Positions 12,451-24,500 of a DNA stretch of 64,000 nt are shown here, one piece after another; the first letter of the stretch is position 1, and each line of letters begins with the position of its first letter. A program made the translations under genes and the position numbers. The notes under the pieces are model-generated. The model did not search any database. It was not told the DNA's origin and worked only from the letters and a program-made list of their open reading frames with translations. The DNA comes from Planctomycetota bacterium (GTDB taxonomy: Bacteria; Planctomycetota; Planctomycetia; Planctomycetales; Planctomycetaceae), in the NCBI GenBank assembly GCA_018242525.1, contig JAFEBS010000014.1, positions 8,646 through 72,645 on the forward strand, given 5' to 3'.

Positions 12451-13947
12451 TCACTCGGGAATCGGATCCTCGCGCCGTACCGGTTCGCCCTCCCAGATCG
12501 CGACATCCGATTCCCTGTCGTACGTCAGGACTCGATGAGCGCTGTTGAGGGCGGGAGGGACGTCCACCTTGGGAAGCCAGCGGCGGTGGGCGGCAATCAC
12601 GGCAGCATGCTCGGATTTGGCGGCCAGGTTGGTCCATTCATGCGGATCGGCCTGCATATCGTAAAGTTCTTCGGTACCGTCGGCGTAGCGGATGTATCGC
12701 CACGACTCGCTGCGGATCCCATGGTTTCCCTGATTGTGCGACGTGATTGCCGGTCGATCCCGCTTGGCGTTTGCGTCCTTCAATTGCGGATTCAGGCTGA
12801 TCCCTTCCAGGTCATCGCGCGGTTTCAGGCCACAGAGATCAATCAGCGTGGGATAGATATCGAGTAACTCGGCAGGCTGGGTGCAACGCCCACCCGACGC
12901 GACACCCGGGCCGGCGAAAATCAGCGGGACACGCGTGCCGCGATCCCACAGTGTGTTCTTGCCGGTAATTCCTTTTTCGCCCAGATGCCAGCCGTGGTCG
13001 CCCCACAGGACGATGATCGTATTGTCGGCCAATCCGGCTTCCTCAAGGGCCGCTGTCAGTCGGCCGACCTGGGCATCGACAAAGCTGGTACACGCCAGGT
13101 ACGACCGGACCAGGTTCCGCCACTGGTGATTCTCGCGCACCCACTTCAACCGGGGTTCGGGCAGCTTCCAATGCAGGTACCACGAAAACCGCGGCGTATC
13201 GTCGCGATCGCTTTCCAGGATCGGTGGCAGAACGGAATCATCGTCGGGGTACAGGTCAAACCAGCGCTGGGTGGCGTAGCAGGGAACATGCGGCAGAAAG
13301 AATCCCGCCGCGAGAAAGAACGGCTGGTCCCTGGGGGCGGATTTGATCTGTTCCACGGCCCAACTGGCAACCTTGTAATCCCCCTTGTCCTCGTCCTTGT
13401 GCGGAAAGACACCCCAGTCCATCAGCGGGTGGTTTCCCATCGGCGTCGGCGGAATCAGCTTTTTTTCGGGCTTCACGCCGATCCCCCCGGCCGCCCCCCA
13501 GACGTCGAATTCCGCCGCCTGCAGTTTCGGTCCCCCCACGCCGCCGTGATAGACTTTGCCGACAGTCAACGTGCGGTAACCATGAGCCTTGAAGTGCTGC
13601 GGCAGGGCCACTCGATCTTTCCAGCCATCGAGTGTCCGAAACCAGGGAGCCAGCCCGTAGACTCCGGTGGTCGTTGGTCGCAGACTGAGCATCAGGCTGG
13701 TGCGGGAGGGATTGCACAGCGGGGCCTGGCAATGGGCATTCAGGAACACGGTCCCGCGCGCGGCCAACCGATCGATGTGCGGAGTCTTCACCAGCGGGTG
13801 CCCTCCCAACGTTCCGATCCAGTCATTCTGGTCATCGATCGCAATGAACAGCACATTTGGCCGCTGGCTGGCCTGTTGCGCCTGAACGACGGAGTGCGCC
13901 AAGCCCATCACAGTCATGCAACCCAGAACCAGAATCGTCGATTTCAT
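12451..13947 (-). CDS. formylglycine-dependent sulfatase
   Basis: PNVLFIAIDDQND metal-binding start and the CNPSRTSLMLS (C-x-P-x-R) signature. Signal peptide MKSTILVLGCMTVMGLAHSVVQA. Start taken at ATG 13947. Confidence 0.9.
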   Translation of the reverse strand: MKSTILVLGCMTVMGLAHSVVQAQQASQRPNVLFIAIDDQNDWIGTLGGHPLVKTPHIDRLAARGTVFLNAHCQAPLCNPSRTSLMLSLRPTTTGVYGLAPWFRTLDGWKDRVALPQHFKAHGYRTLTVGKVYHGGVGGPKLQAAEFDVWGAAGGIGVKPEKKLIPPTPMGNHPLMDWGVFPHKDEDKGDYKVASWAVEQIKSAPRDQPFFLAAGFFLPHVPCYATQRWFDLYPDDDSVLPPILESDRDDTPRFSWYLHWKLPEPRLKWVRENHQWRNLVRSYLACTSFVDAQVGRLTAALEEAGLADNTIIVLWGDHGWHLGEKGITGKNTLWDRGTRVPLIFAGPGVASGGRCTQPAELLDIYPTLIDLCGLKPRDDLEGISLNPQLKDANAKRDRPAITSHNQGNHGIRSESWRYIRYADGTEELYDMQADPHEWTNLAAKSEHAAVIAAHRRWLPKVDVPPALNSAHRVLTYDRESDVAIWEGEPVRREDPIPE

Positions 13948-14095
13948 TGCTGTCGGCCTCGCGTCAAGAGGAGTGGATGGTCCGTGAGTTTGCGGCATGT
14001 CCCAGTCAGCCGTCAATCGAGTGGACGGACGATGTCGATTCCGGTAGTGACCGGTCGCCGGATTCGGGAGAATTCGGGGCTGTTGCAACCGACGA

Positions 14096-14115
14096 CCGAA
14101 GTCTCACGACTTCGG
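14096..14115. repeat. 20-nt perfect hairpin CCGAAGTC-TCAC-GACTTCGG (identical copy at 55647..55666)
   Basis: Exact 20/20 repeat. Partial copies occur at 39522..39534 and 55607..55619. All copies are intergenic. Confidence 0.6.
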
Positions 14116-14354
14116 CTACGAAACAACATCCTCGGCGCGTTCCGATGTTCCCGATCGGACTTCCGTTTTAGAACGAATGAATCGGTGATAACGGATGCAA
14201 TGGATCGTCCGTGCAAAATGGAACGAACGATGAGAATCGACTGGTGCAGTCTGAGATCACACCACTGAATCTGCCGATTTTACGGACAGCGGGCTTCCCC
14301 CCCCAAATCCGACGTTGCGCGCAGCGCAGGCCGACTTGGAGAGCTCGCACTCGA

Positions 14355-15263
14355 ATGTCCAAACGGAGTGTTGAAATGCTCAGCCGACGGATGGCCTGGT
14401 TGTTCACCTGTGGAACCGCAGCCGGTTTCCTCTGCTCGTTCGCTCCACAAGATGGTTATTCGGAAGTTTTCCGGAAACGAGCCCCCGTTCGTTCCGGGTT
14501 ACCCGCACATGTCCCGTACGGGCAGGATCGGCCCGCGACCATCGTGGCGATCACCTCAGATGCCGCCGTCGAAGAGCAGGTGTTGCTGGTCTTGAACACC
14601 CCGACTCTGGTTCCCCTCAGTGCCCCGGAAAGCTATCCGTGGCAGGCCTCCGCCAAGCCTTCGGCCGATTCTGTTTTGAATCGACCCTCATTCAGTCCCA
14701 TCATTCGCGGCGGGAATTCCAGAACCGATACCAAGACCGTCGTCGAAACCTCAATCGGGCCCGATGGAACTGCGGTCACCAAACGACTGACCAACGAGAA
14801 TACCGAGTCTGGATCCGGCCCGATGCTCGCCATCGCCGGACAGCACTGGTCGGCTCAGCCCCCCGACGTGCTGGCACCGGCGATGTTTCGTCGCAAGTCG
14901 TTCTCGCTGAAGCAGCCCAGTCTGCAGGCCGACAACGTGACCCTCGACCGTATCGGCCTGGCAATCTACGAAACCGGTCACGTCGCATTGACCGGGCTGG
15001 TTTCCGACACCGGAGGCCAGGACGGACTGACAAAGGGCAGTGACATCACGATTCGAGTCCGAGGCTACGGCATGAACCGCTTGAATTCCCCGACGCTTCC
15101 CAATGGCCCGCTGCACTTTGAAATGAGCAGTAACTGCCGAGTCCTGCGGGGCCGATCCGACGCAATTTCACTCGTCCCACTCCGTTGTTCCGAGACAGTA
15201 CGAGAACACTACGACGAAATCACGCATCTGGAAGTCGTATTGGAGAGTCGACGTAGCAAATAA
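14355..15263 (+). CDS. hypothetical secreted protein
   Basis: ATG 14355 gives MSKRSVEMLSRRMAWLFTCGTAAGFLCSFA, which looks like a signal peptide. No recognised family. Same strand as the secretin gene. Confidence 0.45.
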   Translation: MSKRSVEMLSRRMAWLFTCGTAAGFLCSFAPQDGYSEVFRKRAPVRSGLPAHVPYGQDRPATIVAITSDAAVEEQVLLVLNTPTLVPLSAPESYPWQASAKPSADSVLNRPSFSPIIRGGNSRTDTKTVVETSIGPDGTAVTKRLTNENTESGSGPMLAIAGQHWSAQPPDVLAPAMFRRKSFSLKQPSLQADNVTLDRIGLAIYETGHVALTGLVSDTGGQDGLTKGSDITIRVRGYGMNRLNSPTLPNGPLHFEMSSNCRVLRGRSDAISLVPLRCSETVREHYDEITHLEVVLESRRSK

Positions 15264-15446
15264 TTCGAAGGCTACAATTGATACAGTGAACTCCGCCGTC
15301 CTCAAAGTCGATAAAACCGGTACGGGCCGCAAAGTCGACATGGAGGATTTGATCCGCCATCGGTGTGGCCCCAGTTTTGTCCGCACGATGGCGTTCCAGT
15401 TCGATCGGGAAATGGATTGCCGTCTTGCCCTTGGGGGGGGCTTGTC

Positions 15447-16250
15447 ATGGACGGATTCGTTCCGCCACGGTGGATCGTGCGCCTGTCGGCCGCGACCCTC
15501 TTGTGGAGTGGGTTAGGATGGTGTGAGCACGATCTTTTCGCCCAGCACGGGCGTGTCGGCGGTCTGGATGAACTGGTCATCCTGGATCCCGGCAAGCACG
15601 ACCGGGGCCTGCCCTCCGTTGATTTGATTCCATCCCCGATCGGTACGCAGATCGACATCGCACCGACGACGCATGTCCACCGTTTCTACTACAACGGTGA
15701 CAAGGAGTACCAGGGCCCCTTGATCCAGGGAGGCCCGACAATCGTCGTGGCGACGCATCCCAGGACGAACAAGCGGATGTACATCGACGTGAATCTGCCG
15801 TCGGGTGCTCCGATCATCGTCTACGACAAATGCTCGATCACCTACGTCTACCAGGACCGCCGAGTCGTGCTGGGCTTCGCCCCGCTGAGCGATGAGCGAG
15901 CCAGCGTGACCTATCTGCCCGGCCGCGGCCTGTGCCGTTTGAAGCAGGAACACATCCAGGCCGTCAAGCAGAAACATGTCGCCGCCGCCCAGCAGCACGG
16001 CCTGGGCCACGCAATTCACGATGCTGGTTCCTCGGTGGTCAAAACCGTCTCCGGTGCCTTTGGCACGGTCGGCAAAGTGACCGGCGAATCGATCAACCAT
16101 GTCAAGACGACCGTCGAGCGACTGCCACCCGTCACGCAACTGCAATCAATCGCCAACCAGCGCGCTGAACGGGGATTGCGTGAAGCCAATTCGCAAGCTC
16201 AAAAGCTGAACGAATTGAAGAACCCGGACTTCATCAAGACGAACCGGTAA
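15447..16250 (+). CDS. hypothetical secreted protein (HVHRFYYNGDKEYQGPLIQGGPTIVV motif)
   Basis: ATG 15447 gives MDGFVPPRWIVRLSAATLLWSGLGW. A compact beta-rich core is followed by a helical Gln/Ala-rich C terminus. I cannot name a family. Confidence 0.45.
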   Translation: MDGFVPPRWIVRLSAATLLWSGLGWCEHDLFAQHGRVGGLDELVILDPGKHDRGLPSVDLIPSPIGTQIDIAPTTHVHRFYYNGDKEYQGPLIQGGPTIVVATHPRTNKRMYIDVNLPSGAPIIVYDKCSITYVYQDRRVVLGFAPLSDERASVTYLPGRGLCRLKQEHIQAVKQKHVAAAQQHGLGHAIHDAGSSVVKTVSGAFGTVGKVTGESINHVKTTVERLPPVTQLQSIANQRAERGLREANSQAQKLNELKNPDFIKTNR

Positions 16251-16356
16251 GCCGCGCAGTCACGATATAACGTTGTCGGTTTGGATCTGACGAATACTCC
16301 GATCTACGCAGGCGGGCATGATGCCTCCCTTTTTCCGTCCACGGAAGGACCCAAAA

Positions 16357-19300
16357 ATGAATTTCGGGCCATTCATCAAGGCGAGCTTGCCTCGCATTGC
16401 AATTGTTCTCGGACTATTTGCCGCTATCGAATCCGCTGCTCCCAGCGTTGCATTCGCACAGGGCAAAGGCCCGAAACCAACGGTGGCGGCAGGATTATTT
16501 GCGACCGCCGACCCTGCGGCCATTGCGATTGCACCCGGGACACCGATTCCCACCACGGCCTATATCAAAGTGTCTATGCCTGATGCTGCAGGCGAATTAC
16601 GGATCTTCATCGGAAACACCCGTCAGTTTGCAAAGCGAATCGCAAGTGACTCTACGACCACCAAAATTGTGCCGTTGGATTTGTTCAATATCTCGATGAA
16701 GAGTCCACAAAAGCTGACTGTTGTTTGGACTCCTGACACAATGTCTGCGTCTGACCCGAGTGATCCGATTGACGTTGATATTGACACAGTCGCACCGAGA
16801 GTGACTGGCATTCGACTGGTCGGGGTTTCTGGTGGTCCCGCGACACTTGAAATCCGTTTTGCAGAAGATGACCTTGCCGTGTCAAACTCCTCCGCCGTAG
16901 GAAGTCCGCTTAAGCCAGAGAACTACGTAATTACCCGATCGGCAGGGCTTCCAGGATTTACGAGTGCCGATGGAATTCCAGCAGGGGCGAATCTGAAGCC
17001 AATCCTGAGCGATGACCGAATGACGGTACGGATTGCCTTGGGATCGCTGGCGTCTGATAACTATCAAATCATCATCAGATCGATTCAGGATGGCCACGGA
17101 AATACCATTGATCCCGACAACGTCAAACTGAATTTCACGGCGGCACCCGAGCCTGGAACTGGGAAACATGTCGAGTTCCCCGAATACACGGCCCGCGTCG
17201 AGCGAAACAAGACGGAAGTCTTCAATCCGGGAGATCGTGTGGATACCCGGATGGCACGACTCTATTACTTCCGCGACGCCCACCGCGTCGCTCAGATCAT
17301 CAATCGCAATGTACAATCGTACAACCGTGCTGCGGTGACGATGGCTCAGCAGAACGCCGAAGATTCTCGAAACCTGGCCAATCAAAAGACAGCCGATCGC
17401 AAGCAACGCGAAGCGACTGCGATTCGTGCCGCCGAAGCAACGCGGGCTGCCGAGTCCGAACTTGCTGCCGCCCGCCAGGCCCTGGAAGAAATCCGGGCCG
17501 TCAATGCCCAGGCGACGCAAGGTGCCGCAGCCGCAACTCAAGCAGCGACTGACGCCACTCGCCAGCAGTCAACTCCTGAAATCGAAGCGCTGACGCGACA
17601 GAGCACTGACCTGGGAACGAAAATCACGAGTCTCAACACGGCGATCGATGCAGATCAAACGAGCCTGAACACACTCAATTCAACAATCGCAGCACTGAAT
17701 GTTGATCTCGCTGGGCTACATGCCGAACTCGACGGAGTCCCTGCCGCAATGCAGAACTCGGACTCCGCGAAAGCACTTGTGACAAAAACATCGGACTTGA
17801 ACATAAACACTGCCAAGAAGAAGGCAATCATTGACCGGATGTTGCTGGCCAAGGCGGACTTGGAATCCACGAGTACGCAGAAAGACAAGATCGACGCGAA
17901 AGTCAATGCCCTCAAGAACGAAAACACGGACTTCACCGCGCAGGCCACAGCACTGACTACCCGTGCCACATCCGCACGCACTGCAGCAGTCAGCTTCGCC
18001 GCCAAAGTTGCCGAATTGGAATCCAAGGTTGCCAACCTTCGCGACTCCGAACGCCTGAAACAAGCCGACGTGGACCAGGCGCAGGAAGCCGAGGACCGTG
18101 CCCGCGAAAACCAGTTCCGTGCCGAAGTCGCCGCAGCGACGGCCGACCCAGATACTTATGTTCCAGGCGACGTGAAATCCGTCGATCCGGTCACACGGGT
18201 CTCAGTCAGTGTCATTGGCGAAGGTCTGATTCAACTGCGCGGTCCGATCCGCGGAATCAACAAAATTCGAACGATGATCAGTCAGATCGATGCTCCTGTT
18301 GGTCAGGTCAAGGTGGGAATCTTCACCGTCCAGGTCAACGGCGAGCACGGTGATCGTATGGAAAAAGTTGCCACCCGGATCGAGGGAAATATCGATCTGT
18401 CGCGGTATCTGACGAACCAGTCGCTTGGGCTACTTCGACGGTCGATCCAGGAGATCGCCGGAATGGTCGTCAAGAGTGTCGACCTGGAGATGCGTGGCAA
18501 CCGGCAAGTGGATCGTGATAGACGTTACCTGTATGCCTTTTTTGGCAGAGATTTCGTCGATGAACTCTACGAGATGGATAGCGAATTCCTGCACACGGAA
18601 AACAAGATCCTCTCCATTCACTCGATGGATACAACGAATCAGTCGCAGGCGTTCTTTATCATGGCGCTGGCCAAGAACGACATTCGCCAGATGATCCTGG
18701 AACGGTTCCGACACCTGATTCAATGCGAGATGCCGTGCCTAGAATGGGACTTCCGCCGCTCCGCCGATATGACCCGCAGGATCAAGCATCAGAAACTCAA
18801 CACGCTGGAAGAGGTCACATTCAACGTCCATCAGAAATATCACTTCAGCAATCTGCACGGCTTCTTCAACGCTTGGGTCGACGACACCGACGCAATGACT
18901 CCCATGCAACGCGAGTTCATCCGTCTGGCCCAGATCTTCAAGTCACAGATGGTCGCCGAGATGGAGTACAAACAACGAGTCATCGAGCGAGGGTTGATAG
19001 AGGACCAGGCGAATACAGAGGACGAACTCAACGAACTACTCCAGCCGGTGAGGTCGTCCGCGAATTTGATGATCGTCAAATCCTTGCAGGGCCTGATCGA
19101 GAGTCAGGACAAGATCGCAGAACTTGAGCTTAGCATCCTTGATCTTCTCGGTGGATTGGATGAAGTTCAACTTGATATCGCCGAGCGCGTCAATACATAT
19201 CAGGCAGTTCAGTCAAAAGTTCTGTCTGCACTTCAGTCAAGATCCAGAACCTATTCGCGATTGAGTCTGGCCTTGAAAGCCTCTGAAAACAGAAACATCA

Positions 19301-21567
19301 CGGAACCTGTGCTGGATAGAGCGATTCTTGCAACATCAAATGACAACGAACTTGCGATGTCAATCTTGGGTGCCATGCGCACCTTGCAAAAAGTAAAAGA
19401 CGCTGCTGATGCTGCTGATGCCGACCCAACGAAACCAAAGACCTTGACTACCGAGACCGCCTCCGAAGTGAAGCGATCGATAGACGCATTCATCGAACTT
19501 CTCAAACCACTCGTCGTTAAGAAAGATCTATTTCCGAATGCGTACAGTGACAAGTTTGAAACGGCATATCAACAGTTATCTGAGTTTCCAGTCAATACAT
19601 CAACTACAAATCGGCTTGCCGAAGACATGCTGGGCGCCGCGCTTGCGTATTTTGACCAGCCGTTTTTTAACGGCCAGACGGTCATCGCCGTGGCACAGGC
19701 ATATTTAGGATACGCCGACTCACTAAAGCCTTGTATTACCGCGTATCTTCGAGTGGTACAGGACCCGAAGGTGACATCAAACAATGTGGTCAGAGCTACT
19801 GGAGTCTTGAAAAATGCGGTCGGCAGAATCTATCCTGCAGATCCAACCATGCGTCCTCCGTTTGTTACGACGCTGCTGAGCAATGCAGATGCGTTGATGC
19901 TCAGGCTGTCAGGCGATGAGATTCGCATCGCCAGGGCGAAGTACGTCGGGCGGCGTGTGCGGCAAGACATCGATCATCGTAAGCTCCTTGAATTCCTGAC
20001 GGATGAACAGGAAGAGAAATACATTGAACTTGAAGAGGGATGCCGGTCGCACATCGCTCAGATTGACAACTATTTGAAGCGGTTGGCAATTGCACTCGAA
20101 GACGATTTCAAGGTGCAATTCTACGATCCTGCGTTTGCAGAAGTTCGCCGGGCCAGCCGTGAATGGGACGTTAATCTTGGACAGGTGGAACGCACGACGA
20201 TTCTGACCAACAATCGGGCACTGGCCAAGGTGAGTCCTCAGGCAACGATGGAATTTGATCTCCCGAAACGCGACATCATGATTACCGAGGCAATGACCGG
20301 GGCAAAGGCGATCGTCAACGAATATGGAACGTTGTTGCAAGACCCGACGTTTCTGAGTGTAACGGGAATGTTGAGCGGGTCGCCCGCGGTCGGGGGCGTC
20401 GCCGGACGAGGGCCAATTCCGGGACTGCCGGGGCAGGGCCTGGGAGCCGCCGGAGTGCGAAATGTGCTGCCGGGACAGTCCACGGATGCCACCGAGCAGT
20501 TGATGGCGCAAACCGGCGGTCCGGCGCGTCAATTTGGATCCGAGTTCGAGAAACTGATTCCTGACCCGGCCGTGTACAAGATCGAAACCGGGACTGGTTT
20601 TGAAGTCCGGCCCGTGATTCAACCCGATGGTCACAGCATCATTTACGATTTCGATTACATGTACACCACGAACATTCGCGAGCCGGTTCGGCCGGATGAA
20701 AAGCACCTGGGACGGGTCAAACGTCACTTCATTCATACCGAAGTGCAGACGTCCAGCTTTGAATTGCGGGAAATCAGTCGTTATCAAGTTGCTTTAAAGG
20801 TGTCGCGAACAAGTCGCGGTGTCCCATTGATGGAAGATATCCCTGGTGTCGGAGTCCTGTTCCGCCCGTTGCCGAGTGCCGAATCATCCCTGCAGCAGAA
20901 CATCATTCTTGGTCAGTCGACCGTGTATCCAACACTGTTTGACTTGATGGGACTTCGCTGGTCGAAGTATGTGGTCGATCTCGATCATCTGGGGTTGCGG
21001 GATCTGGAACATGTCGTCCGTGGACGAAACACGACGATCCACGACTTCACCTTTGACGAGGGCTCGCGGCGGGTCGACGAATTCCTGGACATTGAAACCA
21101 AGGACAAGCAGCACGTACGGAGCGATTTGTATCGTCAACAACGCCAACCGTCGCCATATCATCCGGGGGGATACCAGAACACCAGGCTCAAAGATGGAAG
21201 CGATCCAACCGGTCGGGAGTACGATCGCCCGGACACTCGCCCGGAGGACTTTCGGGAACCTCCCTACGACAACAAGTATCGAGTGCCGGTCGAAAACCTG
21301 CCGACGCGTGGAACGCGAACGGAAACTATCGAGATCCGCGGGGGCCTGGAAGCACCACAGATTCCAAATTCAGGGCTCAGTAATCCGAGCTTGAATTCCG
21401 TTCCGGAGCGAGTCAATATCCGCCCCATGAGTTATGAAGCCCCGGCGCCGGTCAAATCGGATCGCGGTGCAACCAAGCCTAACTCGAAGTCAACGAACGC
21501 GCCGCCGCCGCCGACAAAACGCCCCCAGTTACTCAGATTTCCCTCGATGGGCGTCCGCAAGAGCTGA
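16357..21567 (+). CDS. giant secretin-family outer-membrane protein with Ig-like domain and two large helical insertions
   Basis: Signal peptide MNFGPFIKASLPRIAIVLGLFAAIESAAPSVAFA. An Ig-like DTVAPRVTGIRLVG segment. A secretin N-type domain split as ARLYYFRDAHRVAQIINRNV ... VSVSVIGEGLIQLRGPIRGINKIRTMISQIDAPVGQVKVGIFTVQVNGE. The C-terminal secretin core has FEVRPVIQPDGHSIIYDFDY, RHFIHTEVQTSSFELREI and GVPLMEDIPGVGVLFRP (the VPxLxDIPxxGxLF signature). Confidence 0.75.
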   Translation: MNFGPFIKASLPRIAIVLGLFAAIESAAPSVAFAQGKGPKPTVAAGLFATADPAAIAIAPGTPIPTTAYIKVSMPDAAGELRIFIGNTRQFAKRIASDSTTTKIVPLDLFNISMKSPQKLTVVWTPDTMSASDPSDPIDVDIDTVAPRVTGIRLVGVSGGPATLEIRFAEDDLAVSNSSAVGSPLKPENYVITRSAGLPGFTSADGIPAGANLKPILSDDRMTVRIALGSLASDNYQIIIRSIQDGHGNTIDPDNVKLNFTAAPEPGTGKHVEFPEYTARVERNKTEVFNPGDRVDTRMARLYYFRDAHRVAQIINRNVQSYNRAAVTMAQQNAEDSRNLANQKTADRKQREATAIRAAEATRAAESELAAARQALEEIRAVNAQATQGAAAATQAATDATRQQSTPEIEALTRQSTDLGTKITSLNTAIDADQTSLNTLNSTIAALNVDLAGLHAELDGVPAAMQNSDSAKALVTKTSDLNINTAKKKAIIDRMLLAKADLESTSTQKDKIDAKVNALKNENTDFTAQATALTTRATSARTAAVSFAAKVAELESKVANLRDSERLKQADVDQAQEAEDRARENQFRAEVAAATADPDTYVPGDVKSVDPVTRVSVSVIGEGLIQLRGPIRGINKIRTMISQIDAPVGQVKVGIFTVQVNGEHGDRMEKVATRIEGNIDLSRYLTNQSLGLLRRSIQEIAGMVVKSVDLEMRGNRQVDRDRRYLYAFFGRDFVDELYEMDSEFLHTENKILSIHSMDTTNQSQAFFIMALAKNDIRQMILERFRHLIQCEMPCLEWDFRRSADMTRRIKHQKLNTLEEVTFNVHQKYHFSNLHGFFNAWVDDTDAMTPMQREFIRLAQIFKSQMVAEMEYKQRVIERGLIEDQANTEDELNELLQPVRSSANLMIVKSLQGLIESQDKIAELELSILDLLGGLDEVQLDIAERVNTYQAVQSKVLSALQSRSRTYSRLSLALKASENRNITEPVLDRAILATSNDNELAMSILGAMRTLQKVKDAADAADADPTKPKTLTTETASEVKRSIDAFIELLKPLVVKKDLFPNAYSDKFETAYQQLSEFPVNTSTTNRLAEDMLGAALAYFDQPFFNGQTVIAVAQAYLGYADSLKPCITAYLRVVQDPKVTSNNVVRATGVLKNAVGRIYPADPTMRPPFVTTLLSNADALMLRLSGDEIRIARAKYVGRRVRQDIDHRKLLEFLTDEQEEKYIELEEGCRSHIAQIDNYLKRLAIALEDDFKVQFYDPAFAEVRRASREWDVNLGQVERTTILTNNRALAKVSPQATMEFDLPKRDIMITEAMTGAKAIVNEYGTLLQDPTFLSVTGMLSGSPAVGGVAGRGPIPGLPGQGLGAAGVRNVLPGQSTDATEQLMAQTGGPARQFGSEFEKLIPDPAVYKIETGTGFEVRPVIQPDGHSIIYDFDYMYTTNIREPVRPDEKHLGRVKRHFIHTEVQTSSFELREISRYQVALKVSRTSRGVPLMEDIPGVGVLFRPLPSAESSLQQNIILGQSTVYPTLFDLMGLRWSKYVVDLDHLGLRDLEHVVRGRNTTIHDFTFDEGSRRVDEFLDIETKDKQHVRSDLYRQQRQPSPYHPGGYQNTRLKDGSDPTGREYDRPDTRPEDFREPPYDNKYRVPVENLPTRGTRTETIEIRGGLEAPQIPNSGLSNPSLNSVPERVNIRPMSYEAPAPVKSDRGATKPNSKSTNAPPPPTKRPQLLRFPSMGVRKS

Positions 21568-21599
21568 TGACCAACTGGCGACACCACAAATATCGATTT

Positions 21600-21605
21600 A
21601 GGAGG
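21600..21605 (+). promoter_or_regulatory. Shine-Dalgarno AGGAGG, 7 nt upstream of ATG 21613
   Basis: Perfect AGGAGG in TTTAGGAGGATTAAGAATG. Confidence 0.6.
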
Positions 21606-21612
21606 ATTAAGA

Positions 21613-22248
21613 ATGGCTAGGGGAAAGATCGTTGTTAAGTTGACAATCCCATTCGTCCGCCCGGACGGTGGAGGTTCGCTACTGGATATTGAAGGCGATA
21701 CGACAGGGCTTGTTGACGGAATGTCAGTCGATTATCACGTTGTGGATGGGTTGGCCGTCATCGATAGTGGCCTCCAATCCGTCGCTGCGGAGAGTCCGAC
21801 CAAAGGAACAATCGTTGTTAAGTTGACAATTCCGTTCGTCCGTCCAGCAGGTGGCGGTTCACTGCTGGACATTGATGGCGATACGACAGGGCTTATTGAC
21901 GGGATGTCCGTCGATTATCATGTTGTGGATGGGTTGGCCGTCATCGGCAGCGCCCCGCCCGTCGCGGCGGAGAGCCCGATCTCAATCCCCAATCGGGCAC
22001 CTGCCAGGAAGGCTGCAAAGAAAGCAGCGAGCACGGCATCATCCTCCAGGAAGGCTGCGAAGAAGTCTTCGGCCAAGCCTGCAAGTTCCAAGAAGACCGT
22101 CAAAAGGCAGGCCACCTCCAAGAAGGCTGCAAAAGCGGCAACCGCGAAGTCAGTTTCCAAGAAGGTGATGAAGAAGGCTGCCGTCAAGTCCGCGAGTTCC
22201 AAGAAGGCCATCAAGAAGAAAGCTTCCTCCAAGAAGAAACTCAAATAA
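21613..22248 (+). CDS. protein with two tandem ~61-aa beta-rich modules and a histone-H1-like Lys/Ala/Ser-rich C-terminal tail
   Basis: G(K/T)IVVKLTIPFVRP(D/A)GGGSLLDI(E/D)GDTTGL(V/I)DGMSVDYHVVDGLAVI occurs twice. The tail is ...PARKAAKKAASTASSSRKAAKKSSAKPASSKKTVKRQATSKKAAKAATAKSVSKKVMKKAAVKSASSKKAIKKKASSKKKLK. No signal peptide. Strong SD. Confidence 0.7.
   Translation: MARGKIVVKLTIPFVRPDGGGSLLDIEGDTTGLVDGMSVDYHVVDGLAVIDSGLQSVAAESPTKGTIVVKLTIPFVRPAGGGSLLDIDGDTTGLIDGMSVDYHVVDGLAVIGSAPPVAAESPISIPNRAPARKAAKKAASTASSSRKAAKKSSAKPASSKKTVKRQATSKKAAKAATAKSVSKKVMKKAAVKSASSKKAIKKKASSKKKLK
21622..21987 (+). repeat. intragenic tandem duplication, period 183 nt (second unit 180 nt)
   Basis: Hand alignment of the 141-nt cores gives about 17 mismatches (about 88% identity) and 43/47 identical residues. 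Most nucleotide differences are synonymous. Confidence 0.8.
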
Positions 22249-22281
22249 TCGACGAAGCCTAAAAAGCATCCGCCAGGTCAG

Positions 22282-23313
22282 TCATTTCTGAGAATCCCGC
22301 TCACCCTGCAGTTTGTCGCGCCGCTGTTGCAATTCATCTCGTTCACGCTGCAGTTTGTCCCGCGCATCCTGAAGAGTCTCACGTTCGATCTGCAGTTTGT
22401 CCCGCACACTCTGCAGACTGGCGGCTTTTGCCGCCTCGGCTTTCAGCGCATCTCTTTGGTGACTGAAATCGGCCTCTCGACCGATCTGCAGGGCATCCCG
22501 CTCAGACTGCAACTTGTCACGTCGCTGTTGAAGTGCGTCACGTTCGTCTTGAAGTGTGTTACGGGCATCCTGCATCGCATCTCGAGCAGCTTGATCCTTA
22601 ATGGAGGCCAAGTCCCGTGCATCCAGGTCCCGCTTTCGTTTGCTCAGCACTTTCGGCTGAATGGCCATCAGAGCCTTGATGTCCTTCGTCAGTTCCGAGA
22701 TTTCGGATTTCAATTCAGATACTTCCTGCGTCGTTGCATTTGCTTTCGTGATCGAAGCTTGGTCTGGATGCCTCGAGACGACAAGCGTGCCTGTGCCGCC
22801 AACCGATACGTTGATCGTGGCATTCTTCAAGACACGCTGATGTTGATCTACGACGACAATCTCAACCGCCTTGGAAAGGACACCAATCGGTAAGTTCAAT
22901 TCGTATTGGCGAACCGGATCCGTTGAAGTTGTTCGCTGCCCATCAATAATCACGACCGCATTACCGGGGCAGGCAACGCTCAGACGAAATGTTGAAGGCA
23001 GGACCACCACCCCAAGTGGACTCACGACGAGATGCGAGGCTGATCCATCGGTGGCTGCGAGAATCGGAGCGGAATTCATCGCAAGTGGAGCCATGTCCGA
23101 ACAGACTGAGCAGCTAACGGAAAGAGTCGGGGACGCGACCAGTACCGGATTGGTCATGCGTGGAGCCCAGGGCTGATCGTATCCAAACGTGCGTTTCGGA
23201 CACTGTTCCACGCGGTCTCGACTGATCGCGTGTTTCGCCGGAATCAAAAGTACCGCAGATAGAAGTACCAAGTAGAGCGAACGGAATCGGATCATTGTTT
23301 CTCCAAGTTTCAT
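22282..23313 (-). CDS. secreted protein: TIGR03000-like beta domain + long ERDxLQ heptad coiled coil
   Basis: Signal peptide (MKLGET)MIRFRSLYLVLLSAVLLIPAKHAIS. FRLSVACPGNAVVIIDGQRTTSTDPVRQYELNLP resembles the planctomycete TIGR03000 domain pattern. The C-terminal half carries repeated RDALQ/RDKLQ/RDELQ heptads. Paralogue of the next gene. Confidence 0.6.
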   Translation of the reverse strand: MKLGETMIRFRSLYLVLLSAVLLIPAKHAISRDRVEQCPKRTFGYDQPWAPRMTNPVLVASPTLSVSCSVCSDMAPLAMNSAPILAATDGSASHLVVSPLGVVVLPSTFRLSVACPGNAVVIIDGQRTTSTDPVRQYELNLPIGVLSKAVEIVVVDQHQRVLKNATINVSVGGTGTLVVSRHPDQASITKANATTQEVSELKSEISELTKDIKALMAIQPKVLSKRKRDLDARDLASIKDQAARDAMQDARNTLQDERDALQQRRDKLQSERDALQIGREADFSHQRDALKAEAAKAASLQSVRDKLQIERETLQDARDKLQRERDELQQRRDKLQGERDSQK

Positions 23314-23375: not shown

Positions 23376-24011
23376 CTATTTCTTTGCATCGCGCTCTTTT
23401 TGCAACTGGTCGCGACGCATCTGCAATTGATCGCGTTCGGTCTGCAGTTTGTCACGTTGAAGTTGCAACGTGTCGCGTTCGTCCTGCAGTTTGTCGACTT
23501 CACGTTTGCGGGCTTCGAGTGCCTCGGCGGTACTCCGAAGTTTTTTCAATTCCGCGCTGACCACGCTGGGTACGACAACAGTCTTTGACTGTCCAGACGT
23601 GGCTGGCATTCGATCATTCAGGACTGGTTCCAGACCATCTTGAAGGACGAGGACATCAAGTTCGACCATCGACTTGGGGACGGAAATATCGTATTGGCGG
23701 ATTCTTTCCGTCGACGACGTCAGTCGACCGTTGATGATCACTACTGCATCGCTCGGGCAGACGACACACAGTCGAAATGGGGCACCGTCGGACTCCGCCA
23801 GATTCAGGGTCTCAACACGCGGATCGGTGGTTTGCCGATTCGCCTGAGATGAAGGAGCGGCAGGTATTGAACGGTCGGTTGTCGGTCCCATTGTTGGTGC
23901 GCAGTTTATTGCCTGGACAAACACACCCCGCCTGTCACGAGCAATCGCTGCATTCGTCAACGTCGCCAAGGTTACGATGAAAAGCGTTAGGCCCAAAGCG
24001 CGACACCGCAT
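23376..24011 (-). CDS. secreted protein: TIGR03000-like beta domain + ERDxLQ heptad coiled coil (shorter paralogue)
   Basis: Signal peptide MRCRALGLTLFIVTLATLTNAAIA, then FRLCVVCPSDAVVIINGRLTSSTERIRQYDISVP. The C terminus is DKLQDERDTLQLQRDKLQTERDQLQMRRDQLQKERD. Start taken at ATG 24011. Confidence 0.6.
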   Translation of the reverse strand: MRCRALGLTLFIVTLATLTNAAIARDRRGVFVQAINCAPTMGPTTDRSIPAAPSSQANRQTTDPRVETLNLAESDGAPFRLCVVCPSDAVVIINGRLTSSTERIRQYDISVPKSMVELDVLVLQDGLEPVLNDRMPATSGQSKTVVVPSVVSAELKKLRSTAEALEARKREVDKLQDERDTLQLQRDKLQTERDQLQMRRDQLQKERDAKK

Positions 24012-24500
24012 GGTCAAGTCTCCAGCAAACAATGGGGGTTCACAGGGAAATGAAGCGTTCCGGAAAAACGCATCACTCGTGAAAATGTTAATGTGCGCAG
24101 AATATCCAGACAAGCCTGGCGGCGCGACTTGGTACGCCACACAGGAAGATTATTTGCCAGAGTGTCGCGGCGCAGGATGGGCCGAGTCCGAACGGACGGC
24201 GTCACGTGGTTGGCGACGGAACGTCCATCCGACCATTTTTCAGGACACGGATCGCCCTACTTGATCGCTCGGTTCAGCAGGTTCTGTGTGATCTTCTGCA
24301 CTCGTGCGTCCGGGTCGTGGGGTCGGCTCCAGTGCGACCATGGCAGCATGTGACAGAAACAAAAAGGAAGGTGCGGCGAACCCACAATCCGATCCGTCAC
24401 TTCAAACTTCCAGATATAAAGTCGTTACCCGCGTTGAGTGCCACCCCGGCAATTACAGCCGTAGTGCCAGCCGGTATCATCGGATGCGATCAGTGACGCG

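Follow-up and report, generated by a model that had tools for sequence, protein, structure and literature searches.

Among the gated pores in the outer membranes of Gram-negative bacteria, secretins are the largest. The insertions known in them consist of β-hairpins or of small domains measuring some tens of residues. Lineage-specific additions are tolerated at loop tips or at the N-terminus, as in the cap gate of Vibrio-type GspD and in type IV pilus (T4P) PilQ with its added AMIN domains (PMC6532946; PMC10499894). Literature searches returned no description of a secretin in which the N-domain and the β-domain are each split by hundreds of helical residues. Such an organisation is predicted here for a giant secretin-like protein of 1736 amino acids (aa), encoded together with its stop codon on the + strand at 16357..21567 of a 64,000-nucleotide stretch from a Planctomycetota bacterium (assembly GCA_018242525.1, contig JAFEBS010000014.1, positions 8,646 to 72,645 of the forward strand). 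This whole 64-kb stretch is referred to as the window, nucleotide coordinates are those of the window and residues are numbered from the Met at 16357. According to our preferred reading, to which we assign a probability of roughly 0.6, the protein is a Sec-exported, highly divergent and Planctomycetia-specific member of the secretin superfamily which, together with an adjacent gene (geneB), would have a pore or ring role without a linked motor.

The closest described systems are the secretins from type II secretion systems (T2SS), GspD, PulD and EpsD (PF00263 plus PF03958; structures 5wq7, 6hcg and 6i1y), which also gave the best structural matches. Like these, the giant protein has a signal peptide, a predicted N-type βαββα domain that would run straight into a first strand of the type '…LD.P..QV.I…V.V', similar long antiparallel strands in its model, and a signature motif followed by the final strand. 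Unlike these, it would contain only one N-type domain and an Ig-like region instead of N0, its domains are predicted to be interrupted by a hairpin of ~273 aa and a module of ~607 aa, a probably disordered tail takes the place of a recognisable S-domain, its profile scores remain below threshold, it is not encoded with GspC-M and, at 1736 compared to ~650 aa, it is 2-3 times as long.

Four colinear lines of evidence connect aa 1273-1535 (20173..20961, + strand) to the secretin β-core, of which this segment would represent all but the first strand. First, the Pfam Secretin family (PF00263) is the top match, with aa 1408-1503 aligning to positions 54-148 of the 169-position profile. The same family matched 16/16 members of the protein family that were scanned, always below threshold (best E 1.8e-6); rescanned members reached 25.3 bits (P0036, the best) and 20.4 bits (P0058), and one member carries a precomputed PF00263.27 label. 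Second, the protein contains, near its C-terminus, the motif VP(L/I)LxDIPxxGxLF within GVPLMEDIPGVGVLFRP (aa 1488-1504, 20818..20868, + strand), which is 58% identical to KVPLLGDIPLVGQLFRY of E. coli GspD over 19 columns. G1488, P1496, G1499 and F1502 of this segment, which probably corresponds to the amphipathic helical loop, are invariant in 35 aligned members.

Third, the predicted fold resembles that of secretins. A model of aa 575-1550 (976 aa, mostly helical) was built with AlphaFold2 (AF2) from a 15-sequence alignment, with a mean predicted local distance difference test score (pLDDT) of 66.8. It places long core strands at 1273-1285, 1408-1421, 1427-1441, 1452-1466, 1469-1480 and 1511-1524, whereas the Gly/Pro-rich aa ~1300-1400 have a pLDDT <50. 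The top Foldseek matches of this model in the PDB are PulD (6hcg), EpsD (6i1y), GspD (5wq9/5wq8/5wq7), ExeD (6i1x), InvG (6pee/5tcq) and PilQ (6w6m), with RcpA (8odn) lower in the list, all with a probability of 0.99-1.0. Secretins of the T2SS, the type III secretion system (T3SS) and T4P make up 12 of the 14 top matches and most of the top 30, with low TM-scores, and the alignments span 270-300 columns of PulD, InvG and PilQ. Taken together with the Pfam match, this would put a secretin-like core where the original prediction had located it, at the significance of a remote homology.

Fourth, profile-profile comparison supports the same order of elements. When the core was compared by hhalign to a single GspD sequence, the 19-residue motif alone was aligned; a 12-sequence secretin profile was then built, comprising T2SS GspD/EtpD, T4P PilQ/HofQ and Tad CpaC-type proteins from E. 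coli and plasmid records. Against this profile the core aligned from the motif to the last strand (P 3.3e-4; reversed control 0.35), the remainder of the N-domain plus the first strand aligned with P 6.6e-4, and the N-domain with the first insert spliced out aligned over 84 columns with P 9.4e-4 (controls 0.75). All these alignments are colinear with GspD. The reversed secretin profile gave P 0.27-0.75 overall, and three other segments of the family gave P 0.11-0.77.

The N-type domain itself is predicted to be split. In an AF2 model of aa 262-720 (mean pLDDT 79.7), its first half, with β1 at aa 295-301 and α1 at 308-318 (TRMARLYYFRDAHRVAQIINRN; 17239..17310, + strand), is separated from its second half, with β2 at 616-621, β3 at 624-630 and α2 at 631-645 (18202..18291, + strand). 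R301, R306-R310, N316 and R317 of the first half are invariant, and hhalign pairs TRMARLYYFRDAHRVAQII with GspD TRVYYLKYAKATNLVEVL, which forms β1-α1 of N3; the second half aligns to the end of GspD N3. The resulting order β-α-[hairpin]-β-β-α is modelled as the ring-building βαββα domain of secretins with a hairpin between α1 and β2, in line with what had been proposed from the sequence. Directly behind it lies the putative first β-strand of the secretin domain, a 13-residue AF2 strand at aa 650-662 (QVKVGIFTVQVNG; 18304..18342, + strand), which aligns to GspD QVLVEAIIVEVQD and to the first secretin strand therein (QVLVEAIIVEV). Across this junction LIQLRGPIRGINKIRTMISQIDAPVGQVKVGIFTVQV pairs with LVITADQSVQEKLATVIARLDIRRAQVLVEAIIVEV, which in GspD runs from N3 β3-α2 into the first barrel strand. 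The strand at 650-662 would pair with the C-terminal sheet, because a 13-residue strand needs partners of comparable length and these are found only in the core. As had been foreseen, about 600 aa separate it from the remaining long strands, which resume at 1273.

Several observations weigh against a secretin assignment and against parts of the architecture just described. PF00263 scores 12.4 bits with the full protein and 17.9 bits with the isolated core, compared to a gathering cutoff of 27.5, and PF03958 (Secretin_N) gave no Pfam match with the window protein or with eight of its homologues, also when the first insert was spliced out. The Foldseek E-values are only 2e-3 to 4e-2, none being <=1e-3, and the model behind them has a mean pLDDT of 66.8 from 15 sequences; the weak E-values and low TM-scores can be attributed to the 976-residue query being mostly helix. 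The hhalign probabilities amount to 22-38%. Sequence-profile searches of PDB sequences with the whole protein and with the core returned coiled-coil and designed-repeat matches and no secretin, a search from hidden Markov model (HMM) to sequence being too insensitive here. That strand 650-662 pairs with the C-terminal sheet is deduced from the DSSP strand assignment, and since the region equivalent to lip and gate (aa ~1300-1400) has a pLDDT <50, a gated double barrel is not demonstrated.

By curated HMMs, the protein does not qualify as a member of the secretin families. The original prediction had made its case depend on significant Secretin or Secretin_N matches, and on this point the outcome is borderline: the sub-threshold Secretin match recurs in all 16 members scanned, but the window protein reaches no curated threshold and Secretin_N goes undetected in it. 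Each of the lines of evidence is weak singly, yet Pfam, motif, fold and profile-profile comparison converge, and judging from sequence and models we consider remote homology of the giant protein to secretins likely, with some room for doubt.

The first insert (aa 323-595, 17323..18141, + strand) corresponds to the Ala/Thr/Gln/Glu-rich stretch of ~280 aa that had been noted before, and it is predicted, mostly with pLDDT >90, to be an antiparallel two-helix coiled-coil hairpin. Its helices run outbound over 323-403 and 406-458 and, after a turn, return over 469-595 (model residues 62-197 and 208-334). Arms of ~130 residues would correspond to ~20 nm at ~1.5 Å per residue, and across the family segment lengths give an estimated 9-25 nm. 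Foldseek matches this insert to SMC arms, the MukB elbow and chemoreceptor hairpins, and NCBIfam gives weak SMC matches on aa 323-591. With SMC, MukB and Rad50 it shares the long intramolecular antiparallel two-helix coiled coil; unlike those proteins, the giant protein has no ATPase head or hinge, and the hairpin would protrude as a loop from a small domain in the periplasm, so that the likeness is one of fold and composition only. Foldseek searches of the N-region model, and of the long model against a viral library, likewise returned mainly SMC/Rad50-like coiled coils and were uninformative on the small N-domain.

The second insert is an all-helical module of ~607 aa (aa 664-1270, 18346..20166, + strand) according to the AF2 model, and it has no Pfam family. 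It starts right after strand 650-662, where the alignment places the turn (EVQDGNG) of E. coli GspD's first β-hairpin. A conserved helical domain (664-885, compact over 665-836) is succeeded by a helix of 126 residues (849-974), a helical tip that varies (~975-1160) and conserved return helices (1168-1267); pLDDT is ~80-90 for 665-800 and 849-960, and <50 for 960-1031. Few stretches of the protein are as conserved as the ~220 aa at the start of this insert and the ~70 aa at its end, with many invariant residues at 683-878 and 1209-1264 (R683, R694, Q717, R720, D721, Y724, F728, G730, K1209, K1221, D1249, D1250 and F1255 among them). These invariant residues at the base of the insert point to a functional domain and not to a passive spacer. 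Of the earlier view of a pore decorated with helical modules, the split barrel is supported, with long strands resuming at 1273, but the conserved base makes this module more than mere decoration.

An Ig-like domain of the Big_5 type could be placed by alignment to homologues at aa 145-252 (16789..17112, + strand), within an N-terminal region of variable length. Big_5 (PF13205) exceeds its cutoff of 23.6 bits in the homologues P0054 and P0057 (28.3 and 35.8 bits, respectively), and the matched region aligns onto window aa 145-252, which includes VAPRVTGIRLVG. The Ig-like segment of the original prediction thus gains support from two homologues at the aligned place, but Pfam detected no Big_5 or other Ig-like match in the window protein itself. 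At the other end, a Gly/Pro/Arg/Tyr-rich C-terminal tail (aa 1550-1736, 21004..21564, + strand), recognised by composition and without a Pfam family, is probably disordered. It is of the anticipated composition but with 187 aa slightly shorter than the ~210 aa proposed, and it contains the motifs DLYR and SPYHPxGY, in which D1590, L1591, Y1592, H1602, P1603, G1605 and Y1606 are nearly invariant.

The gene model was examined as well. The open reading frame (ORF) on the + strand extends over 16318..21567 (1749 aa), and from the Met at 16357, just 5' of which lies a Shine-Dalgarno-like GGAAGGA, 1736 aa are read. Inspection of the sequence reveals a Sec-type signal peptide directly after this Met (aa 1-34, 16357..16458, + strand), MNFGPFIKASLPRIAIVLGLFAAIESAAPSVAFA/QG, with n-, h- and c-regions, ending …IAIVLGLFAAIESAAPSVAFA/QG (SVAFA/QG) at an AFA/QG site; size and signal peptide are as anticipated. 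The peptides quoted in the original prediction were also all recovered in place, ARLYYFRDAHRVAQIINRNV at aa 300-319, VSVSVIGEGLIQLRGPIRGINKIRTMISQIDAPVGQVKVGIFTVQVNGE at aa 615-663 and those of the core between aa 1279 and 1525 (nt ~20190-20930). The deposited gene call, P0001, is 1515 aa long and starts ~221 codons 3' of Met 16357, by which it skips window positions 16357-17019 (+ strand) and would lack the signal peptide as well as the greater part of the Ig-like domain. Because another assembly has a 1736-aa call and homologues align through the N-terminus, the long form was used. A promoter and terminator scan of 13900-22500 gave nothing beyond shuffled expectation. The GC content is 0.52-0.556 across 16-24 kb of the window compared to 0.58-0.61 elsewhere in it, which could reflect the amino-acid composition of coiled coils or a different history.

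A word-indexed search yielded 73 homologues of 1,500-2,250 aa, nearly all annotated as 'hypothetical protein', from Stieleria, Tautonia, Thalassoroseus, Fuerstiella and Pirellulales metagenome-assembled genomes (MAGs). An exhaustive profile search with the C-terminal core extended the family to 503 clusters (50% identity) at E<=1e-10, and in all of the top 150 clusters the core lies near the C-terminus of long proteins or in fragments. In a scan of one genome per GTDB species, 148 species were positive, among them Blastopirellula marina DSM 3645 and two species of Stieleria, and the positives cover Pirellulales, Planctomycetales, Isosphaerales and Gemmatales, i.e. all four orders of the Planctomycetia. 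A few MAGs labelled Kuenenia, Nealsonbacteria and Chitinophaga were positive too, probably due to binning or naming errors. The family is specific to the class Planctomycetia, and in the literature searched no paper describing it was found.

Conservation and segment lengths were derived from a 35-sequence alignment in window numbering. Four conserved blocks have a nearly constant length across the family, namely aa 270-365 (94-98 aa), 560-700 (141-142 aa), 1200-1275 (76-78 aa) and 1275-1545 (252-272 aa), whereas the segments around them vary: 248-752 aa for the N-terminus, 50-265 aa for the coiled coil of the first insert, 199-442 aa for the middle helices of the second insert and 138-334 aa for the tail. 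As block lengths stay near-constant while the helical segments differ, the two inserts occupy fixed structural positions. The 73 full-length homologues and these fixed lengths also argue against chance and against the chimeric mis-assembly that had been raised as an alternative; mis-assembly or gene fusion was ruled out, as independent assemblies, including complete genomes such as that of Tautonia (CP036426), have the same full-length layout.

The same split layout is present in a distant relative of 1227 aa from a soil metagenome, P0073 (L094:1049-4732), in the order β1α1, coiled coil, β2β3α2 plus first strand, helices and core. The N-domain sequence of this protein is nearer to the canonical secretin consensus; its best Pfam match is Secretin_N, sub-threshold (E 0.018) and covering positions 41-69 of the 69-position profile, hence the second half only, located after the coiled coil. 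That so distant a relative shares the layout indicates that the split architecture is old; the genes around P0073 were uninformative.

The genomic surroundings link the protein to no known secretion or pilus machine. No T2SS, T4P or Tad genes were found among the ORFs of at least 200 aa in the 64-kb window by Pfam, although small divergent pilins could be missed in this way, and tblastn with GspC/D/E/F/G, CpaB, PilN, HofO and prepilin peptidase found none in the window either. The same tblastn applied to 83 homologue loci (1.32 Mb with the window) gave no match within 10 kb in 82/83, by which the orphan context first proposed for the window is extended to almost all loci. Just one of the 83 loci has canonical GspD and GspE genes no more than 10 kb away from the giant gene (L088:15011-18930), and their nearness is probably coincidental. 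The remaining genes of the window are typical of planctomycetes (sulfatases, DUF1501, DUF7133, an RND efflux system and M16 peptidases).

Conversely, one gene does accompany the family. A 267-aa exported protein, geneB (15447..16250, + strand), absent from the original prediction, neighbours the giant gene wherever the flanks are long enough (50/50 loci). It lies immediately upstream, as in the window, or else one to two genes downstream, which makes it a strictly co-located partner. It has a signal peptide, a β-rich conserved domain (…VDIPPTVxVHRYYYTGDRxFQGPxLPGGPTIVVAxHP…) and a helical C-terminal half, and is 40-41% identical to its Tautonia and Stieleria orthologues (6e-48 and 7e-61, respectively). 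No relative of geneB was found in Pfam, NCBIfam or the PDB, no lipobox was seen by inspection, and similarity to PulS, PilF or TadD was limited to one PulS_OutS match (E 0.019) in 1/30 members. Its extreme C-terminus reads …[F/T]-[I/V]-[P/R/K]-T-[N/V/I]-R, and of 62 sequences, 53 have T at -3, 50 have R at -1 and 46 match T-[N/V/I]-R exactly. This terminus, …PTNR in the window, is a candidate docking peptide by analogy with secretin-pilotin docking. In the Tad/Cpa system, the secretin RcpA docks the pilotin TadD via its four extreme C-terminal residues, and its assembly depends on this partner (PMC10499894). The giant protein is like RcpA/CpaC (8odn) in its predicted single periplasmic N-domain, with a Foldseek probability of 0.99; unlike in that system, where the secretin bears the peptide and docks a tetratricopeptide repeat (TPR) lipoprotein, the terminus here is on geneB, which is not TPR-like, and no cpaB, cpaF or tad genes are linked.

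Two genes upstream of the giant gene lies geneA (14358..15263, + strand), which encodes an exported protein of ~301 aa without a Pfam or NCBIfam family. Its C-terminal half is 34% identical to the Tautonia gene at the same position (2e-15), and the Stieleria counterpart is 37% identical over 59 aa; tblastn detected geneA in 9/50 loci, a weak partnership with the giant gene. The downstream genes 21613-22248, 22282-23313 and 23376-24140 were rejected as partners, being next to homologues in 0/83 loci. The first of these (+ strand), 45 nt after the giant gene, encodes 211 aa with two ~70-aa repeats (IVVKLTIPFVRPxGGGSLLDIxGDTTGLxDGMSVDYHVVDGLAVI) and a Lys/Ala-rich, histone-H1-like tail, and the products of the other two (both - strand) end in repeated 'RDxLQ' coiled-coil units with only weak SMC/HOOK-type matches. 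In Tautonia, the gene downstream of the giant gene (L001:15987-16631) has HHH_3/HHH Pfam matches (ComEA-like, DNA-binding); it is not homologous to the downstream gene in the window and hence does not suggest a conserved connection with DNA uptake.

On the basis of these data we propose the following working model. The exported chain would comprise, in order, one or more Ig-like domains, a single βαββα N-domain with a hairpin in its α1-β2 loop, the first strand, the ~607-aa module with conserved base and variable tip, the β-core and a disordered tail. By analogy with secretins, from which both oligomeric state and outer-membrane location are borrowed, 12-15 subunits may assemble into a ring or pore at the outer membrane via the VPLxxDIPxxGxLF motif region (PMC6532946, PMC10499894). 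The N-domains would then form a periplasmic ring, and the two ~20-nm helical stalks of each subunit would constitute two crowns of spokes, serving either as spacers or tethers over the periplasm, which is enlarged in planctomycetes, or as a collar that surrounds the barrel. GeneB might work together with the giant protein, its terminus docking as a peptide in a groove. As the protein is not encoded with a T2SS, T4P or Tad motor, it would serve a machine encoded elsewhere or be a motor-independent portal or anchor.

The alternative that survives best, unlikely as we consider it, is that the protein is the dedicated outer-membrane secretin of a fibre machine of the T4P, Tad or T2SS type whose motor and pilin genes lie in another part of the genome. 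The stalks would then replace the N0/N1 domains by which secretins normally reach the inner-membrane platform. Genes of a single pathway are often dispersed in planctomycetes, and the modelled ~20-nm coiled coil would have about the length required to span the periplasm. Moreover, all secretins characterised so far work in machines for filaments, pseudopili, needles or phage (PMC10499894), and 12-nm fibres are reported to emerge from large crateriform structures (PMC5394234). Such a machine is at odds with the 82/83 loci (1.32 Mb) that lack GspE/F/G, CpaB, PilN/O and prepilin peptidase within 10 kb and with geneB being the only strictly linked gene. In addition, P. limnophila has a separately annotated GspD (ADG69500.1), a 'Putative Secretin' (ADG66488.1) and a 'Type II/III ss homologue' (ADG66639.1), so canonical machines may already have their own secretins, provided that these proteins, assigned by annotation, lie outside the present family.

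Less probable still is a purely structural role, in which the protein would be an envelope anchor or strut, Lpp-like or a ring scaffold, and no channel, and in which the coiled coils would fix the distance between outer membrane, wall and cytoplasmic membrane. More than half of the protein is modelled as long helices and coiled coil, the estimated coiled-coil length of 9-25 nm differs between species as for a spacer, the lip and gate region is Gly/Pro-rich and poorly modelled, no motor genes are linked, and ring-building βαββα domains also occur in non-channel scaffolds. The pattern of conservation speaks against it: it is the β-core and the base of the second insert that are most conserved, not the coiled coils, and both the membrane-association motif and the secretin strand pattern, with its 270-300 matched columns of PulD, InvG and PilQ, have been kept. 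Finally, that the protein is no secretin relative at all, but belongs to an unrelated planctomycete coiled-coil surface family with a convergent motif and generic β-hairpins, is very improbable: every secretin line is sub-threshold singly and HMM searches of PDB sequences found no secretin, but four independent lines (Pfam in 16/16 members, Foldseek top matches from five secretin classes, hhalign with clean controls, and the signature motif) are colinear, the junction of N-domain and first strand aligns exactly to the N3/secretin junction of GspD, and Secretin_N is the best Pfam match of P0073.

Planctomycetes possess an enlarged periplasm and take in intact polysaccharides and proteins. Their crateriform structures have been described as outer-membrane complexes with press-stud connections to the cytoplasmic membrane, ~104 per cell, some of which carry 12-nm dextran-binding fibres; they were called enigmatic, and the uptake system was said to be still awaiting characterisation (PMC5394234). 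According to a 2025 review, neither the mechanisms nor the players in the uptake of macromolecules are known; it also cites the proposal that crateriform pili are part of an uptake system (PMC12673574). It is a speculative and unlikely reading that the giant protein and geneB form the outer-membrane core of crateriform structures, which are suspected of being the portal through which whole macromolecules are taken up, with the ring as the pit and the helical stalks as struts to the cytoplasmic membrane. Struts of ~20 nm and a ring would fit this picture geometrically, yet nothing links the gene to these structures.

The secretin superfamily itself is known; new are the doubly split architecture, the orphan context and the always-adjacent partner. 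The characterised secretins all belong to T2SS, T3SS, T4P/Tad or filamentous-phage machines; the present family is widespread (~500 clusters at 50% identity) and lineage-specific, split twice by helix and uncoupled from any known motor. As such it illustrates the extent to which the secretin fold tolerates remodelling, and it hints at an envelope machine not yet described. Both genes are open to deletion and tagging in cultured strains, and with this pair as a concrete candidate the long-standing question of macromolecule uptake in planctomycetes becomes testable, whatever the answer.

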